From Terriglobia bacterium (GTDB lineage: Bacteria > Acidobacteriota > Terriglobia > Acidiferrales > UBA7541), in contig OY968796.1 of the NCBI GenBank assembly GCA_963695545.1, positions 160,001 through 224,000 of the forward strand: a stretch of DNA of 64,000 nucleotides, read 5' to 3'. Both the position numbers and the translations under genes were made by a program. This document shows positions 3,677-56,944 of this stretch, piece by piece (position 1 is the stretch's first letter; the number at the start of each line of letters is the position of its first letter). The notes beneath the pieces were generated by a model. It had not been told where the DNA came from. It did not search any database and was given only the letters and a program-made list of their open reading frames with translations.

Positions 3677-4800
3677 CGACGTTCCTTGCTTCCCGCAACC
3701 TGCGCGGCGGATGCGCCCGACGGCGCTGCCGACTCGAGCAATCCCTGCGCCAGCAGCAACTCGGCATTCAGAATCGCCGCGCCTGCCGCGCCGCGAATCG
3801 TGTTGTGCCCGAGCACGACGAATCGATAATCCAGCACATTGTCCGGAAACAGACGGCCCACGGTCACGCTCATTCCGCCGCCCGCGTCGCGATCAAGACG
3901 CGGCTGCGGCCGGTCCTTCTCGCTGCGCACCAGCACGGGACGCGCCGGAGCCGTGCGCAACTTCAATTCCTGCGGCAGGCCCACAAAATTTTCCATCGCG
4001 CGCCGCACATTATCGATCGTTCCAGGTCGAGAGAGCTTCACGCGCGTGGCCACCATATGCCCGTCGGTGACGTCGACGCGATGGCATTGCGCACTGATGC
4101 GCAGCGGCGCGCCGGCGATCGTCATTCCGGAAACCGAGGCCGAAACCTTGCCCAGAATCTTGCGCACTTCGCGCTCCATTTTCTCCTCTTCCTGGGCGAT
4201 ATAGGGCATCACATTATCCGCGATATCGAGAGAGGCAACGCCCGGGTAGCCTGCGCCGGAAAGCGCCTGCAGCGTCGTCGCGGTCACGCTTTCGATTCCG
4301 AACTCCGCTTCGAGCGGCGCGAGCGCGAGCGCCAGAATGATCGTCGAACAATTCGGATTGGTGACCAGATAGCCGCGGCCAAAGCCGCGATTGCGGCGCT
4401 GCGCTTCGATCAGCGCCAGATGACCCGGATTGATTTCCGGAATCAGCAGCGGCACATCGGAATCCATGCGCCACGCCGCCGAATTGCTGACCACCGGATA
4501 TCCGGCGCGCGCGAATTTCTCTTCCACGTCGCGCGCCGAATCCGAAGGCAAACTCGAAAACACGAAATCGCAATCGAGCGGAGGTTCCGGTGCTTCGACC
4601 GGCAGGGCTCTTGCGATCGCCGGAATTTCGCCGGGCAGGCGCCAGGTGCACGCCTGCGCATAGGTCTTTCCCTGCGAGCGATCCGACGCCGCCAGCGCGG
4701 TGACCTCGAATTGCGGATGATTTTCGAGCAATTGCAGGAATCGCTGGCCGACTGTGCCGGTTGCGCCGAGAATTGCCGCACGAATTTTTCGCGGTGCCAT
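3673..4800 (-). CDS. asd: Aspartate-semialdehyde dehydrogenase, archaeal/fungal-like type
   Basis: GATGTVGQRF, catalytic NPNCST, QALSGAGYPG, HNTIRGAAG. Confidence 0.95.
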   Translation of the reverse strand: MAPRKIRAAILGATGTVGQRFLQLLENHPQFEVTALAASDRSQGKTYAQACTWRLPGEIPAIARALPVEAPEPPLDCDFVFSSLPSDSARDVEEKFARAGYPVVSNSAAWRMDSDVPLLIPEINPGHLALIEAQRRNRGFGRGYLVTNPNCSTIILALALAPLEAEFGIESVTATTLQALSGAGYPGVASLDIADNVMPYIAQEEEKMEREVRKILGKVSASVSGMTIAGAPLRISAQCHRVDVTDGHMVATRVKLSRPGTIDNVRRAMENFVGLPQELKLRTAPARPVLVRSEKDRPQPRLDRDAGGGMSVTVGRLFPDNVLDYRFVVLGHNTIRGAAGAAILNAELLLAQGLLESAAPSGASAAQVAGSKERR

Positions 4801-50684: not shown

Positions 50685-50801
50685 GAGTCCTTCTCCCGGT
50701 TACGACATCGAAATGATATCACCGGCGGGCTTTGCCGTCCCCGGCCGCCGCGGTTAAAAGGCTTTGAGAAATCTCGGCGGTATGGGATACTGCCCTTGGA
50801 C

Positions 50802-50924
50802 ATGAAGGCCCAAATCCAGAAGACCACAATCTGCTGCTGCGACGCGACGTGCTGCTGTTGCGCGTGTTGTTGTGCAGTTTGTTGTTGTACGCCCGCGTCT
50901 TCTGGGTGGATCCTGACGAGCTAG
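50802..50924 (+). CDS. Poly-cysteine leader peptide, 40 aa (MKAQIQKTTICCCDATCCCCACCCAVCCCTPASSGWILTS)
   Basis: 13 Cys in four runs; TTGAGA-N16-GATACT ends 10 nt before the ATG; followed by a terminator, then sat. Confidence 0.85.
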   Translation: MKAQIQKTTICCCDATCCCCACCCAVCCCTPASSGWILTS

Positions 50925-50950
50925 AACCACAACAGCTCAATCGCAGTCAG

Positions 50951-50995
50951 AGCCCACCGCCAGAAGACGACCTGGCAGGTGGGTTTTTTGTTTTT
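50951..50995 (+). terminator. Attenuator terminator upstream of sat
   Basis: GCCCACCGCCAG-AAGACGAC-CTGGC(A)GGTGGGT followed by TTTTTGTTTTT. Confidence 0.85.
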
Positions 50996-51028
50996 ACGAG
51001 CAAGTTTTTCGACCCAGGAGAGCCCTTG

Positions 51029-52231
51029 ATGACCGCTGCCACCGAGACATCGAACATCGCCGCGCATGGCGGCAAGCTGGTCAATCGCGTCATTGCGCCC
51101 GAAGCGCGCCAAGAAGCCCGCGCCCGCGCCGCATCGCTGCGCGCCGTGCCCATCGGCGCTCGCGAGGCAAGTGAACTCCTGCTGATGGCGACCGGCGCGT
51201 TCAGTCCGCTCGAAGGTTTTCAAACCAAAGCCGCCGCGCAATCCGTGGTCGATAAAATGTCGCTCCCCGACGGCACACTCTGGCCGCTGCCCATCCTCTT
51301 GCATCTCGCGCCTGCCGAAGCCAACGACGTGCGCGTCGGCGAACGCGTGGCGCTCACGCTCGATGGCGAACCGCTGGCCACGCTCGACGTCGAAGATCGC
51401 TTCACCGTGCCGCGCGAAGAATGGGCCCCGAAAATTTTCGGCACGAGCGATGCCGCGCACCCCGGTGTTGCGGCGCTGAACAACGCGGGCGAAATCGCGC
51501 TCGGCGGAAAAATCGAGTGGCTCGGCGAGCCAACCCTCCCCGGACTCCCCGTGCAATGGCGCACGCCCACGGAAACGCGCGCCGAAATCAGATCGCGCGG
51601 CTGGTCCACCGTGGCCGGATTCCAAACCCGCAATCCCGTGCATCGCGCGCACGAACACGTTCTGCGCATCGCGCTCGAAGTCACCGACGGCCTGCTGCTG
51701 CATCCGCTTGTCGGCGAAACGCGCGCCGAGGATATTCCCGCCGACATCCGCATGCGCTGCTATCAAGCGCTGCTCGACAATTACCTTCCGCAAAAATACG
51801 TGATGTTCACCGTGCTGCCAGCCTTCATGCGCTATGCCGGTCCGCGCGAAGCCATTTTTCACGCGCTGGTGCGCAAGAATTTCGGATGCACCCACTTTTT
51901 AGTCGGCCGCGATCACGCCGGCGTCGGCGGCTACTACGGCCCCTACGACGCGCACAAATTGGTGCGCTCGGTGGCTGGACGCGGCCTCGGTATCCAGCCG
52001 ATCTTTTTCGACGAAGTTTTTTATTGCAATCGCTGCGGCTCGATGGCCAGCCGCAAAACCTGCGCGCATCCCGACGACGCGCATCTCAGCCTGAGCGGCA
52101 CCGAAGTGCGCCGCCGCCTGCGCGAAGGTTTGCCTCTGCCCGTCGAGTTCACTCGTCCCGAAGTCGCGGCCGTGTTGTCGGAAGCATTCCGCGAAACCAC
52201 CGAAGCCGGCCAGGAGACACGACGTGGTTGA
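51029..52231 (+). CDS. sat: Sulfate adenylyltransferase (ATP sulfurylase)
   Basis: GAFSPLEGF, FQTRNPVHRAHE, MRYAGPREA, VGRDHAGVG; AGGAG RBS. Confidence 0.95.
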   Translation: MTAATETSNIAAHGGKLVNRVIAPEARQEARARAASLRAVPIGAREASELLLMATGAFSPLEGFQTKAAAQSVVDKMSLPDGTLWPLPILLHLAPAEANDVRVGERVALTLDGEPLATLDVEDRFTVPREEWAPKIFGTSDAAHPGVAALNNAGEIALGGKIEWLGEPTLPGLPVQWRTPTETRAEIRSRGWSTVAGFQTRNPVHRAHEHVLRIALEVTDGLLLHPLVGETRAEDIPADIRMRCYQALLDNYLPQKYVMFTVLPAFMRYAGPREAIFHALVRKNFGCTHFLVGRDHAGVGGYYGPYDAHKLVRSVAGRGLGIQPIFFDEVFYCNRCGSMASRKTCAHPDDAHLSLSGTEVRRRLREGLPLPVEFTRPEVAAVLSEAFRETTEAGQETRRG

Positions 52232-52994
52232 AATTCTACTTGGTCTCGTCGGCGGGATTCTTGTCGGCGCAACCGGCTCGGGCTTCGGCACGGTGATTAC
52301 GCCCGTGCTCTTGCTGCTGGGCTACCGTCCGGGCGTGGCCATCGGAACCACGCTGGGCGTGCTCGTGGCCACGAAATTCGTCGGCACCGTCACCCATCAT
52401 CAAATGGGCCACTGGCCGCGCCAGCACGTCTGGCTCTTGCTGGCTGGCGGCGTGGGCGGCGCGCTCGTCGCCGGTTTCGCCGCGACTGCCTGGTTGCCCG
52501 CGATGCACGATGGAAATAAATTGCTCGAGCGTTTCGTCGGAGCCGCCCTGCTCGGTCTCGCTGCATTTATTTTTGGACAAGAACTATGGAGGCGATACGG
52601 CCAGGAGCCACTCCTGCCCGATGCGATTCCCAAGGACCGCGGCGGCCCCATGACTCTTTTCGCCGTCGGCATTGGCACGGGCGCGGCGGTCACACTCACC
52701 GCGGCAGGTTCCGGCAGCGTTCTCGTGCCTGCGCTCGCGCTGGTCACGAATTGGAGCACCGCACAATTGGCCGCGGCCAGTAACTTATTCGGCTGGGTTG
52801 TGGGTGCGATCGGAGTTCTTTTGTTTTCGCACGCCGGCGCGTTCGCCTGGCCGCTGTTCGCAAAGGTCTTGATCGGAACGCTGCCGGGAATTTACTTCGG
52901 TGCGCTGGCTTCGCGCCACATCAAGCGCGGCTGGTTGCTCCGCGGCGTGGCGTTGATCGCGGTGATTCTAGGAGTTCGACTGATTTTCCGTTAA
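52224..52994 (+). CDS. TauE/SafE (TSUP) sulfur-oxyanion transporter
   Basis: Multi-TM protein with duplicated GxGxG..P motifs; lies between sat and cysH. Confidence 0.82.
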   Translation: MVEILLGLVGGILVGATGSGFGTVITPVLLLLGYRPGVAIGTTLGVLVATKFVGTVTHHQMGHWPRQHVWLLLAGGVGGALVAGFAATAWLPAMHDGNKLLERFVGAALLGLAAFIFGQELWRRYGQEPLLPDAIPKDRGGPMTLFAVGIGTGAAVTLTAAGSGSVLVPALALVTNWSTAQLAAASNLFGWVVGAIGVLLFSHAGAFAWPLFAKVLIGTLPGIYFGALASRHIKRGWLLRGVALIAVILGVRLIFR

Positions 52995-53034: not shown

Positions 53035-53730
53035 ATGGATACGCTCCAGCAGGAAGCCGTAGCTCAGCAGCAAGCGGCCGAATCGTGGAATGCGGCCGAA
53101 CTCATCAAGTGGGGACTTGAGCGATTTGGCTCGACGCTCGGAATCGCCTCGAGCTTCGGCGCCGAAGACGTCGTCTTGGTCGAGCTCGCGGCGCGCGCCG
53201 GAATTCCCTATCGCGTCTTCACCCTGGACACCGATTTTCTTTTTCCCGAAACCTACACGCTGATCGAAGGCACGGAGAAGAAGTACGGCATCCACATCGA
53301 GCGCGCTCGTCCGCTGCTCACGCCCGATGAACAGGTCGCCAAGCACGGCGAAGCACTTTGGTCCCGCGAACCAAACCTGTGTTGCTCGATCCGCAAAGTC
53401 GAGCCGCTCAAGAAATCTCTCTCCGGCTTTCAGGCCTGGATCACCGGCATTCGCCGCGATCAAACCCCGCAGCGCGCCAACGCCAAGAAGGTCGATTGGG
53501 ACGCCGGCTTCGGCCTCGTGAAAATTAATCCGCTCGCCGATTGGACTTCCGATCAGGTTTGGGATTTCATTCGCGAGAACAAAATTCCCTACAACGCGCT
53601 CCACGACAATCATTACCCGAGCATCGGCTGCACCTATTGCACGCGCCAGGTTATGCCCGGCGAAGATCCGCGCGCGGGCCGCTGGGCCGGTTTCGCGAAG
53701 ACCGAGTGCGGTCTGCACGCGAAAGAATAG
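53035..53730 (+). CDS. cysH: Assimilatory APS/PAPS reductase, Fe-S (APS reductase) type
   Basis: SSFGAED, LDT, CCSIRKVEPL, SIGCTYCT, ECGLH. Confidence 0.93.
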   Translation: MDTLQQEAVAQQQAAESWNAAELIKWGLERFGSTLGIASSFGAEDVVLVELAARAGIPYRVFTLDTDFLFPETYTLIEGTEKKYGIHIERARPLLTPDEQVAKHGEALWSREPNLCCSIRKVEPLKKSLSGFQAWITGIRRDQTPQRANAKKVDWDAGFGLVKINPLADWTSDQVWDFIRENKIPYNALHDNHYPSIGCTYCTRQVMPGEDPRAGRWAGFAKTECGLHAKE

Positions 53731-53755
53731 TTTTTACAACTCGAAGGTATTCTCA

Positions 53756-53808
53756 AGTCCGAGGCGCGCGCCGCAATTCTCTGCGACGCGCGCCTTGGGC
53801 TTTCTTTA
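53756..53808 (+). terminator. Intrinsic terminator after cysH
   Basis: AGTCCGAGGCGCGCG...CGCGCGCCTTGGGCT followed by TTCTTT. Confidence 0.7.
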
Positions 53809-53835: not shown

Positions 53836-54705
53836 ATGCCGCCTCGTGACCTGCCCCTCGCCGGCTTCAACGGCTTGACCGTGCTCGCGCTCGAAAGCCG
53901 CCGCGCGCCCGAAACTGCCAAACTCATCTCGGCTCACGGAGGCCGACCCATCGTCGCGCCCGCGCTGCGCGAAATTCCGCTCGCTTCAAATGTAAAAGCT
54001 CTGGAATTTGTCGACGCGCTGATCGATGGACAATTTGACATGACCATTCTTCTCACCGGCGTCGGTACGCGCGCGCTCGTCGGCATCGCCGAAAGCGCCG
54101 GCAAGCGCGAACCATTTCTTGCGGCGCTGCGCCGCGTCACGATTGTCGCGCGCGGTCCGAAACCCCTCGCGGTCCTGCGTGAACTAAATATTCCCGCGAG
54201 CGTCGCCGCGCCGGAACCGAACACTTGGCGCGAACTTCTGGCCGCGCTCGATGCAGCGGCCGCGCAATTTCCCGTTCGCGGTCGCCGCGTTGCCGTGCAG
54301 GAATACGGCGTATCGAATCCCGAGCTCCTCGCAGCGCTCGCCGAGCGCGGCGCCGAAGTCACGCCCGTACCCGTTTATCAATGGGCGCTGCCGGAAAATC
54401 TCGAGCCTCTTCGCGCCGCAATTTCCGCCATCGGCCGCGACGAAATCGATGTCGTGCTATTCACGACGAGCGTCCAGGTGGACCACATCTTTGAAGTCGC
54501 CGCCCAAATGAACGCGGTACACGCGCTCCGGCGCGGCCTCGCGCGCACTGTGATCGCGTCAATCGGACCAACCACGACCGAGGCGCTCCTCCGTCACGAT
54601 TTGACGCCAGATCTTGAGCCCTCGCACCCCAAACTCGGCGTCTTAGTCGCAGAGGCCGCGGACCAAAGCCCCGCCCTGCTCGCACCGAAACGCGATCTTC
54701 CATAG
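53836..54705 (+). CDS. hemD: Uroporphyrinogen-III synthase (HemD-like)
   Basis: ARGPK, VPVYQW, FTTSVQV, SIGPTT. Confidence 0.75.
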   Translation: MPPRDLPLAGFNGLTVLALESRRAPETAKLISAHGGRPIVAPALREIPLASNVKALEFVDALIDGQFDMTILLTGVGTRALVGIAESAGKREPFLAALRRVTIVARGPKPLAVLRELNIPASVAAPEPNTWRELLAALDAAAAQFPVRGRRVAVQEYGVSNPELLAALAERGAEVTPVPVYQWALPENLEPLRAAISAIGRDEIDVVLFTTSVQVDHIFEVAAQMNAVHALRRGLARTVIASIGPTTTEALLRHDLTPDLEPSHPKLGVLVAEAADQSPALLAPKRDLP

Positions 54706-54833
54706 CAATCCAGCCTTCATAAACGAATGATTAAAGGAGGGTTAATCCCCGCGGCAGTAGGCTTCAAAATTCCGGTTAGATGCAACGAAGACTTGAATTG
54801 GACACTTTTTCCACAGCCCGGCTAAAATTGTAC

Positions 54834-55655
54834 ATGGACACCACCGCAGTGACCCCCATTGAAGTACAAGGTGCAGTTCAACCCGAAATCCTAACCATAG
54901 ACTTCGATTTCTTACTCGAGATCACCAGCCGCATCGCCGCCGCCGATGCTGTCGACAAAGTGCTCGGGCGCGTGGTGGATTTTGTTTCCACGCTGGTGAA
55001 ATGCGATTCCTGTTTTATCTACATCCTGGAAGGCACTGACCTGGTGCTGCGTGCCTCGAAAAATCCGCATCCGGATATTATCGGCCGACTGCGTCTTTCG
55101 GTCGGCCAGGGCATCACCGGCTGGGTCGCCGAGCACAGAGAACCCGTGACCGTCGCGCGGCACGCCTCAAAAGATCCGCGCTTCAAAGTGTTCCACGAGC
55201 TGCCGGAAGATAGCTTTGAGGCGTTTCTCTCGGTTCCAGTGCTCTGCCGCGGACGTCTGGTCGGCGTCATAAACATCCAGCACAAACAGCCTCACCATCA
55301 CAGCAAGCGGCAGATCCAATTGATTTCTACGATCGGCTTTCTGGTCGGCGCGGAAATCGAAATGGCGCGCCTCGAAGGCGAAAATTCCGAATTGAACGAG
55401 CAGCTCGAGACGCGCAAAGTTGTCGAGCGCGCCAAGGGAATTCTCCAGCGCGAACTTCGCATCACCGAGGAAGAGGCTTATCTTTCGCTGCGCAAACAGA
55501 GCCGCCAGCGGCGCATGCCCATGAAGGAAATCGCCGCGGCCATCGTCTTGAGCGACGAAGTGCAGCGGGGCAGAAGTCCCGTGGCGAACGCTCGACCGGT
55601 TCGCGCCGAAAACGAGCCTGGCACGCGCCGCCCGAGCGGCGTACACCCGTCGTGA
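54834..55655 (+). CDS. GAF + ANTAR domain RNA-binding regulator
   Basis: GAF (GQGITGWVA, DPRF, LSVP, GVIN) plus ANTAR (LETRKVVERAKGIL...EEEAY..LRKQS). Confidence 0.9.
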   Translation: MDTTAVTPIEVQGAVQPEILTIDFDFLLEITSRIAAADAVDKVLGRVVDFVSTLVKCDSCFIYILEGTDLVLRASKNPHPDIIGRLRLSVGQGITGWVAEHREPVTVARHASKDPRFKVFHELPEDSFEAFLSVPVLCRGRLVGVINIQHKQPHHHSKRQIQLISTIGFLVGAEIEMARLEGENSELNEQLETRKVVERAKGILQRELRITEEEAYLSLRKQSRQRRMPMKEIAAAIVLSDEVQRGRSPVANARPVRAENEPGTRRPSGVHPS

Positions 55656-55700: not shown

Positions 55701-56639
55701 TTAGGACTCTGACAAACTGATGTTTCGCTCGGCGGCGCTTGCGTCGTAAGGATTCTCGGAAGTCTCTTCGGCGAAGTCCCCGGCCACTTCGCCCGAAAAC
55801 TGTTCGGCAAATTGCAGTTCGGCGCGGCTCTCGAACGCGGCAGCGGCCGCCAGCGCAATTTCCGGTGCCTCCGCGATTCCGGCCCTGGCCCCGGCCTTCT
55901 CCACAGAAGCCCAATCGCGCGCGGCCATCGCGCGGTCTGCTGCGACGGCGCCAATTACCAGCAGAGCCGGCGCGCCTAGCGTCGGCGCAAGCGCCACTTC
56001 TCCGAGCGTCATCCGCGCAACTTTCTGTTCGCGCCGCGACGCGCAAGAAATCACCGCGCACGGCGTATCCGGAGAAAGCCCGCCGTCGACAAGCTCCTCG
56101 ACGCGCCCGGCGACGTTCGGCCCCGGCATGTACACCGCCAGCGTCGTGTCCTCATCCGCCAGATGCGCCCATCCAGCGCCGGATTTCTCGCGCGTGTGAT
56201 GATTGCTCACCAGAATCAACTTCGATGCCAGGCGCCGGTCCGTCAGCGCGACTTGCGCCACCGCCGCCGCGCCCAGCGCCGCTGTCACGCCCGGCACGAT
56301 CTCAAATTCGATTCCCGCGTGCGCGAGCGCATCCATTTCTTCGCCCGCGCGGCCGAAAATCAGCGGATCCCCGCCCTTCAGGCGCACCACGGCCAACCCC
56401 TGGCGCGCATAATCCACCAGGCGCCGCTCGATTTCCGATTGAGTAATCGATTCCTTGCCGCAGCGCTTGCCTACGTTCTGCACCCGCGCCCCGGCCGGGG
56501 CCAGCGCCAGAATCTCGAGCGGCACAAGATCGTCGTGCAAAATCGCGTCCGCCACGCGCAACAGGCGCGCCGCCTTCAGCGTCAGCAATTCGGGATCGCC
56601 GGGTCCCGCGCCGATCAAATACACCTTGCCGGGAATCAC
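55701..56639 (-). CDS. cobA: Uroporphyrinogen-III C-methyltransferase
   Basis: VYLIGAGPGDPELLT, RLKGGDP..FGR.GEE, VPGVTA. Probable GTG start. Confidence 0.92.
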   Translation of the reverse strand: MIPGKVYLIGAGPGDPELLTLKAARLLRVADAILHDDLVPLEILALAPAGARVQNVGKRCGKESITQSEIERRLVDYARQGLAVVRLKGGDPLIFGRAGEEMDALAHAGIEFEIVPGVTAALGAAAVAQVALTDRRLASKLILVSNHHTREKSGAGWAHLADEDTTLAVYMPGPNVAGRVEELVDGGLSPDTPCAVISCASRREQKVARMTLGEVALAPTLGAPALLVIGAVAADRAMAARDWASVEKAGARAGIAEAPEIALAAAAAFESRAELQFAEQFSGEVAGDFAEETSENPYDASAAERNISLSES

Positions 56640-56944
56640 ATATCCGTGCCTCAACTTCGCTCCTTGCGATGTGTAATACCCATGCTAACACCTGCGCCTA
56701 CTGCACTTACAGCAAAAAGCAGCGGCGCAAACTCAAACGCCCAGCTCTCCCGATTTCCCCGCGTCTAAAACCACGAGTGCTATCATCGCCGTGGGTGGAC
56801 CAAGCACACGAAACAGACTACAGGCTCCGCCGTGGGCGAGACGCACGGATCCATTATCATGGTGCATCGGAAACAAAAAGGAATCCTCGCGCGTATAAAT
56901 AGAGACGGGCGAAGAGTCTTTCTTGACGGCGTGTAGACGAATTC

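Follow-up and report, generated by a model that had tools for sequence, protein, structure and literature searches.

The DNA immediately upstream of the sat-tauE-cysH operon of a Terriglobia bacterium very probably encodes a transcription attenuator that senses Cys-tRNA, as judged from a computational analysis of a 64,000-nt stretch of its genome (referred to as the window; positions 160,001 to 224,000 of contig OY968796.1) and of homologous loci in relatives. An initial reading of the sequence alone had proposed that ribosome stalling on Cys codons in a leader ORF frees an antiterminator and switches on the operon. Conservation of the element, its link to sulfur genes, the geometry of the antiterminator, and natural swaps of the sensor codons together support Cys-codon-dependent attenuation of this kind, to which our analysis adds that the antiterminator strand (segment 2) would have to be freed from an upstream partner (segment 1). 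The element appears to belong to an attenuator family spread through the class, located before whichever sulfur-assimilation gene opens the operon.

The mechanism that we envisage begins with a transcript whose start would lie a few bases upstream of the leader's ATG. When cysteine is plentiful, a ribosome would translate past all 13 Cys codons, reach the stop codon, and cover segment 2, leaving segments 3 and 4 to form a terminator at which RNA polymerase would be expected to halt near position 50990. When Cys-tRNA is short, the ribosome would stall within the Cys runs, with stalling in the later runs being most effective, and would thereby hold segment 1 off and free segment 2 for segment 3. 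Segments 2 and 3, which pair in silico, would do so before segment 4 leaves the polymerase, allowing transcription of sat-tauE-cysH. Should the leader go untranslated, a fold with segment 1 paired to segment 2 and segment 3 paired to segment 4 would keep the operon off.

A Cys-dense leader ORF with a start close to a putative promoter

The leader ORF (positions 50802 to 50924, forward strand like all features of the element described below) has 40 codons, 13 of which encode Cys (6 TGC and 7 TGT), and the sequence confirms the runs of three, four, three, and three Cys codons reported in the sequence-only reading (codons 11 to 13, 17 to 20, 22 to 24, and 27 to 29). As read from the sequence, these four runs at positions 50832 to 50888 constitute the putative sensor. 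When all six frames of G000, a genome of 4.16 Mb, were compared, the leader ORF had the highest Cys density per 20 codons (13), and the runner-up, with 10, was an off-frame shadow. Because of this genome-wide rank and a binomial probability of 3e-11 for at least 13 Cys in 40 codons relative to the TGY trinucleotide frequency, we do not attribute the Cys tract to chance. G000 encodes one tRNA-Cys, with anticodon GCA, and TGT is therefore read by wobble, which may sharpen ribosome stalling.

A sigma-70-like promoter site had been described as ending 10 nt before the ATG, and we found such a site at positions 50764 to 50791 (-35, 16 nt, and an extended -10 with TG; 9 of 12 matches). It is the only one in 800 nt, compared to a mean of 0.3 in shuffled sequence, and constitutes weak evidence when taken alone. 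Ten nucleotides separate the end of the -10 hexamer from the leader ATG at position 50802, and the identical hexamer and 10-nt spacing occur in all five same-genus leaders. A -10-like hexamer lies 7 to 10 nt upstream of the start in 17 leaders of a curated set of 36 (35 distinct, with L029 and L145 being identical; L028, identical to L002, was omitted and L140 was not included). Because the hexamer ends so close to the ATG, the leader transcript may be near-leaderless, with a spacing that suggests a 5' leader of 2 to 4 nt. Leaderless or near-leaderless translation would explain the absence of a Shine-Dalgarno sequence before the leader.

Predicted alternative pairing of four RNA segments

RNA folding confirmed the U-tailed terminator claimed at positions 50951 to 50995, with a stem at 50951 to 50985 of about -23 kcal/mol and a U-tract at 50984 to 50995; a simple terminator scanner missed this stem because of a bulge. 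By folding, segment 3 (50951 to 50971) comprises the 5' arm and loop of the terminator and is the alternative partner of segment 2, and segment 4 (50972 to 50995), which is also supported by covariation of the stem, comprises the 3' arm and U-tract. The antiterminator strand, segment 2 (50896 to 50909), begins 7 nt past the last Cys codon, and 12 nt separate its end from the stop codon. Its sequence CGTCTTCTGG (50896 to 50905) is, as first noticed, perfectly complementary to positions 50960 to 50969 in the upper 5' arm and loop of the terminator, and GTGG/CCAC adds four pairs. The predicted segment 2-segment 3 duplex has an energy of -23.4 kcal/mol (z = -4.0 and P = 0.003 relative to 300 dinucleotide shuffles).

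Minimum-energy folds also revealed segment 1 (50814 to 50824), a near-repeat of segment 3 that is located 5' of the Cys runs, pairs with positions 50897 to 50907, and could serve as an anti-antiterminator. The segment 1-segment 2 duplex had a P value of 0.053 in the window and of <0.05 in 18 of 36 homologues. Segment 1, which was absent from the sequence-only reading, would complete the 1:2, 2:3, and 3:4 layout of trp-type attenuators.

This geometry recurs in the curated leaders. In all 36, segment 2 starts 3 to 25 nt past the last CC run, and 35 of them have 50 to 72 nt between the stop codon and the U-tract. The segment 2-segment 3 duplex was stronger than shuffled sequences at P < 0.05 in 21 leaders and not in the other 15, and the cognate duplex was stronger than the median non-cognate duplex in 32 of the 36. 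A test for covarying hairpins among relatives had been suggested. The terminator stem covaries over 26 homologues (0 of 500 shuffles reached its score). The segment 2-segment 3 helix was 77% paired in a MAFFT alignment, with covariation not above that of shuffles (374 of 500 reached its score). In an ungapped register, pairing of segment 2 with the terminator loop scored 0.61 for cognate versus 0.51 for non-cognate combinations (22 of 26 rows; best of 5,000 permutations, 0.62), a modest signal that is confounded by relatedness.

We then modeled the nascent transcript as far as the terminator loop, with the upstream RNA and a ribosome footprint to position +13 from the P site masked. Segment 3 was paired upstream at 0.66 to 0.70 with the ribosome over any of the Cys codons and at 0.14 with it over the stop codon, a value that is low in part owing to the setup itself, which leaves little RNA free. 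The shift between Cys codons and the stop codon had the same direction in 36 of 36 leaders. For the full-length window leader at equilibrium, the probability of the terminator was 0.18 with a ribosome at the last Cys run, compared to 1.0 with one at the first run or at the stop codon and 0.99 without translation. Among the 36 leaders, the equilibrium probability of the full-length terminator fell below 0.5 in seven with a stall at the first CC run and in five with a stall at the last run. Because equilibrium favors the terminator in most homologues, switching is probably kinetic, with the segment 2-segment 3 helix forming before segment 4 emerges. Kinetic switching is accepted for classical attenuators.

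Persistence of the terminator in most equilibrium folds would also be compatible with a leader that senses cysteine and acts mainly elsewhere, on initiation of sat translation or through Rho-dependent termination, with the hairpin being secondary; the only experimentally studied Cys leaders mask a ribosome-binding site, according to the available portion of that report (10.1101/834739). Against such control, the terminator is the best-conserved part of the element and the part that covaries, and its U-tract is nearly invariant across homologues. Furthermore, the AGGAG ribosome-binding site of sat (51016 to 51020) lies 20 nt past the U-tract, clear of the attenuator hairpins, and the distance from U-tract to gene ranges widely, from 18 to 162 nt. 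We thus regard control mainly at another level as very unlikely.

Conservation of the leader at assimilatory loci

Transcription attenuation by Cys codons is further supported by the distribution of the leader. A search for poly-Cys small ORFs (sORFs) upstream of sat and cysH in relatives had been suggested, and such sORFs are conserved there. Within the genus, a Cys leader (8 to 16 Cys) with a near-identical U-tailed terminator precedes sat in five of five genomes with sat, a count that includes G000; a sixth genome, 66% complete, had no sat match. Within the family, 40 of 151 genomes contained cysH matches at E ≤ 1e-40, and up to 10 kb was examined around 29 of these loci outside the genus. 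A Cys leader with a terminator was present at 23 of the 29 (22 found by our detector and L140 by motif). Among the others, the operon start lay beyond the DNA examined for L146 and L148, the terminator was kept and the Cys tract eroded in L157, L159, and L160, and L162 was a cysD leader locus without a terminator. L152, from the same genus as these last four loci, has either a stop codon before segment 2 or an eroded Cys tract. The eroded leaders before cysD at these five loci (L152, L157, L159, L160, and L162) suggest that the switch may have been lost in part of one genus.

The first gene behind the family leaders varies, being sat, cysD, or a NirA/sulfite-reductase-type gene in the 13 first genes scanned. 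One cluster, L141, contains two Cys leaders with terminators, at 2315 to 2482 before a NirA/sulfite-reductase-type gene and at 4278 to 4408 before cysD. As a control, a Cys leader was found at none of 11 sat loci for which the examined stretch contained no cysH; by eye, we take these loci to be sat-cysC or dissimilatory clusters. The sat loci L018 to L026 were covered over no more than 1.5 kb. Among 80 named sat loci, the detector gave leaders at six of eight from Acidobacteriota and six weak matches at loci from Bacillota. This detector is loose, requiring at least 4 Cys, any hairpin, and a T-run and missing leaders with fewer than 4 Cys. It gave about 60 matches in G000, nearly all of them noise, and we therefore relied on gene context and a covariance model.

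A covariance-model survey and natural swaps of the sensor codons

The covariance model, R1, was built from 33 leaders and matched 45 of 150 genomes of the class and 9 of 150 genomes of the phylum (G000 counted), with one to three matches per genome. We examined 78 matches, comprising 72 of the 73 class matches outside G000 and 6 from other classes. Sulfur-pathway genes follow 64 of the 78 (61 of 75 when three training sequences are excluded), namely sulfite-reductase-type, sat, cysD/cysH, TauE, rhodanese, or siroheme-synthesis genes, assigned by Pfam for 34 matches (47 proteins run), by blastp to those proteins for 28, and by blastx for 2. Because the downstream gene is outside the model, this link is independent evidence; the Cys-richness of the matches is not, because R1 was trained on Cys runs.

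The remaining 14 matches consisted of five Cys leaders, four Thr-rich leaders, one Ile/Val-rich leader, one match before an aromatic amino-acid hydroxylase gene, and three that were unassigned. Three of the five Cys leaders precede genes for a TonB-type outer-membrane protein (L208), a pyridine nucleotide-disulphide oxidoreductase (L251), and a carbonic anhydrase (L273), which may be further members of a sulfur-starvation regulon, and the genes behind the other two were unassigned. The Thr-rich leaders are located before aspartate kinase (three) and Asd (one) and the Ile/Val-rich leader before acetolactate synthase. These five leaders (L236, L245, L253, L274, and L238) are built on the same terminator and segment 2 scaffold as the Cys leaders.

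We consider the chances about even that one homologous scaffold, with segment 2 read as Ser-Ser-Gly and a near-identical terminator, serves as a modular chassis across the class that codon swaps retarget to Cys, Thr, or Ile/Val pathways, and that the several Cys copies per genome constitute a ribosome-run, transcription-level sulfur regulon of near-leaderless mRNAs. If true, the scaffold common to the Thr and Ile/Val leaders would provide a direct case of codon-swap retargeting. Two R1 matches were unusual in structure. L221 (about G219:C1:3680800-3681050, reverse strand) has a long Cys tract that is out of frame with its own ATG relative to its close relative L258, which is due to a frameshift or an assembly error. 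L239 (G082:C1:900286-900412) has a Cys leader and terminator followed, by eye, by an apparent tRNA gene and no protein gene and is perhaps a rearrangement or integration site.

Codon choice within the leaders points to selection at the RNA level. TGT accounts for 162 of 242 Cys codons in leaders versus 19% in coding genes, and the Ser of segment 2 is encoded by TCT in 19 of 22 cases, compared to 5.6% of Ser codons genome-wide. These observations bear on whether the leader might instead encode a small Cys-rich peptide that binds metal or sulfur and works in trans, with the terminator doing no more than fixing the ratio between peptide mRNA and operon mRNA. With 13 Cys among its 40 residues, such a peptide could bind metal, and the leader could be transcribed as a separate short RNA. 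However, the number of Cys residues varies from 3 to 16 per leader and the remaining residues are unconserved, the rare codons TGT and TCT are retained where RNA pairing requires them, searches of Pfam and NCBIfam with the leader peptide gave no match, and the scaffold also carries Thr-rich and Ile/Val-rich leaders that precede genes of the corresponding pathways. To a peptide acting in trans we accordingly assign an even smaller probability than to control at another level.

Relationship to known leader-peptide systems

The thr, leu, and ilv leaders are classical transcription attenuators that operate through leader peptides. The E. coli trp and Salmonella his attenuators belong to the same class (10.1101/834739, in its available part). 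Attenuation through Cys codons, as proposed for the window, would share with trp and his a short ORF located upstream and enriched in codons for the end product, mutually exclusive 1:2, 2:3, and 3:4 helices, and an intrinsic, U-tailed terminator, with an antiterminator that is freed or covered according to the position of the ribosome. It would differ in sensing cysteine, controlling sulfate assimilation, being near-leaderless, and occurring in Acidobacteriota, as well as in having several runs of sensor codons, as many as 16 in total, and no sequence relation to Rfam leader families.

A comparative survey of attenuators was reportedly made by Lopatovskaya and colleagues in 2010. The nearest published counterpart that we found is uORFC-8-2 of Rhodobacterales (Brewer et al. 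2021, PMC8632094, in its accessible part), a motif before cysS with a predicted Cys-codon uORF and U-tailed terminator for which ribosome stalling was proposed. Both systems are predictions and both combine a Cys-codon uORF with a U-tailed terminator. As described there, uORFC-8-2 is set apart by having two tandem Cys codons, controlling a cysteinyl-tRNA synthetase gene, and being restricted to one alphaproteobacterial order; cysS was not among the genes identified behind the 78 R1 matches.

The mycobacterial polycysteine leaderless sORFs act by translational attenuation (Canestrari et al., 10.1101/834739), with Ms5788A regulating translation through masking of a ribosome-binding site. The same 2020 report describes uORF attenuation for cysteine as previously undescribed. 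The leaders described here resemble the mycobacterial ones in having runs of consecutive Cys codons in an apparently 5'-terminal sORF (judged from promoter spacing), a leaderless or near-leaderless start, several loci per genome, and links to cysteine and sulfur genes that include a rhodanese-type sulfurtransferase. In contrast to masking of the ribosome-binding site, a conserved intrinsic terminator is the core of the element here; in folding, the leader paired internally and with the arm of the terminator and did not show the mycobacterial type of pairing with a downstream ribosome-binding site. The element thus falls outside both the mycobacterial and the Rhodobacterales families.

In the available parts of other sources, Cys leaders were predicted in Actinobacteria with no conserved terminator hairpins (PMC1262725), Cys leaders are regarded as translational in PMC13236596, almost no predicted attenuators with an assigned function are given for Acidobacteria in PMC2965389, and the main text of PMC4833913 does not mention cysteine. 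The sequence-only reading was aware of no intrinsic-terminator version in this apparent lineage. A Cys leader with a terminator was predicted earlier for Rhodobacterales cysS, so that the terminator version is not unprecedented, but we found no published account for Acidobacteriota or for sulfate-assimilation operons in literature outside subscription journals and the supplements of PMC8632094, PMC2965389, and PMC4833913.

Cysteine is absent from textbook terminator-based attenuators, and the cysS prediction, as available, is the only terminator version that we found in print. If confirmed, the attenuator would mean that abundant, poorly cultured soil bacteria set sulfate assimilation by Cys-tRNA supply. 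The leader would then be a clean marker for telling assimilatory sat copies from others and would also provide a cysteine sensor that is compact (about 200 nt) and portable and could easily be tested in a laboratory host.

The downstream operon and its neighborhood

Protein family searches confirmed that sat-tauE-cysH lies directly downstream of the leader on the same strand, with sat (sulfate adenylyltransferase; 51029 to 52231; NF003166 and TIGR00339 over cutoff), a gene for a TauE/SafE-family membrane protein (52224 to 52994; PF01925), and cysH (APS/PAPS reductase; 53035 to 53730; NF002537 and TIGR00434 over cutoff). Folding detected a strong hairpin with a short T-run at 53755 to 53808 (forward strand), which is probably the end of the sat-tauE-cysH transcript. 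Beyond cysH, a HemD-domain gene and a GAF-ANTAR gene occupy 53836 to 55655 on the forward strand, with the GAF-ANTAR gene at 54780 to 55655, and a uroporphyrinogen-III methyltransferase gene lies opposite at 55701 to 56654 (reverse strand), an order common to three same-genus relatives. Another ANTAR gene is present near position 1882300 of G000, close to an ammonium-transporter-like gene.

We give scarcely any credence to a terminator switched by a protein or metabolite, through the GAF-ANTAR protein or a riboswitch, with the Cys codons being incidental: the ANTAR gene, of an RNA-binding antiterminator family, is 3.7 kb downstream and linked in the three relatives too, but 45 loci of other genera gave no ANTAR match, Rfam searches of the leader (T-box and SAM families included) gave no match at E ≤ 10 beyond one chance snoRNA and those of five homologous loci gave none, and an open frame with Cys runs is retained across the class. 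ANTAR as the main switch was rejected on the basis of its genus-only linkage and the probable terminator between cysH and hemD-ANTAR.

Across G000, R1 gave one strong match. The sole nitrite/sulfite-reductase-domain gene (G000:C1:3169230-3171485, forward strand) lies apart from the operon and lacks a Cys leader, and none was seen upstream of two cysK/cysM-like genes or cysS. With gene names judged by eye, we noted an Ile/Leu/Val-rich uORF with a terminator upstream of an ilvD-like gene (G000:C1 421825, forward strand), which is also a weak R1 match; a Phe/Tyr/Trp-rich uORF upstream of a pheA-like gene (G000:C1 432580, forward strand); and a terminator upstream of a thrC-like gene (G000:C1 659720-660982, reverse strand). 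These three sites are candidates for further leader-peptide attenuators.
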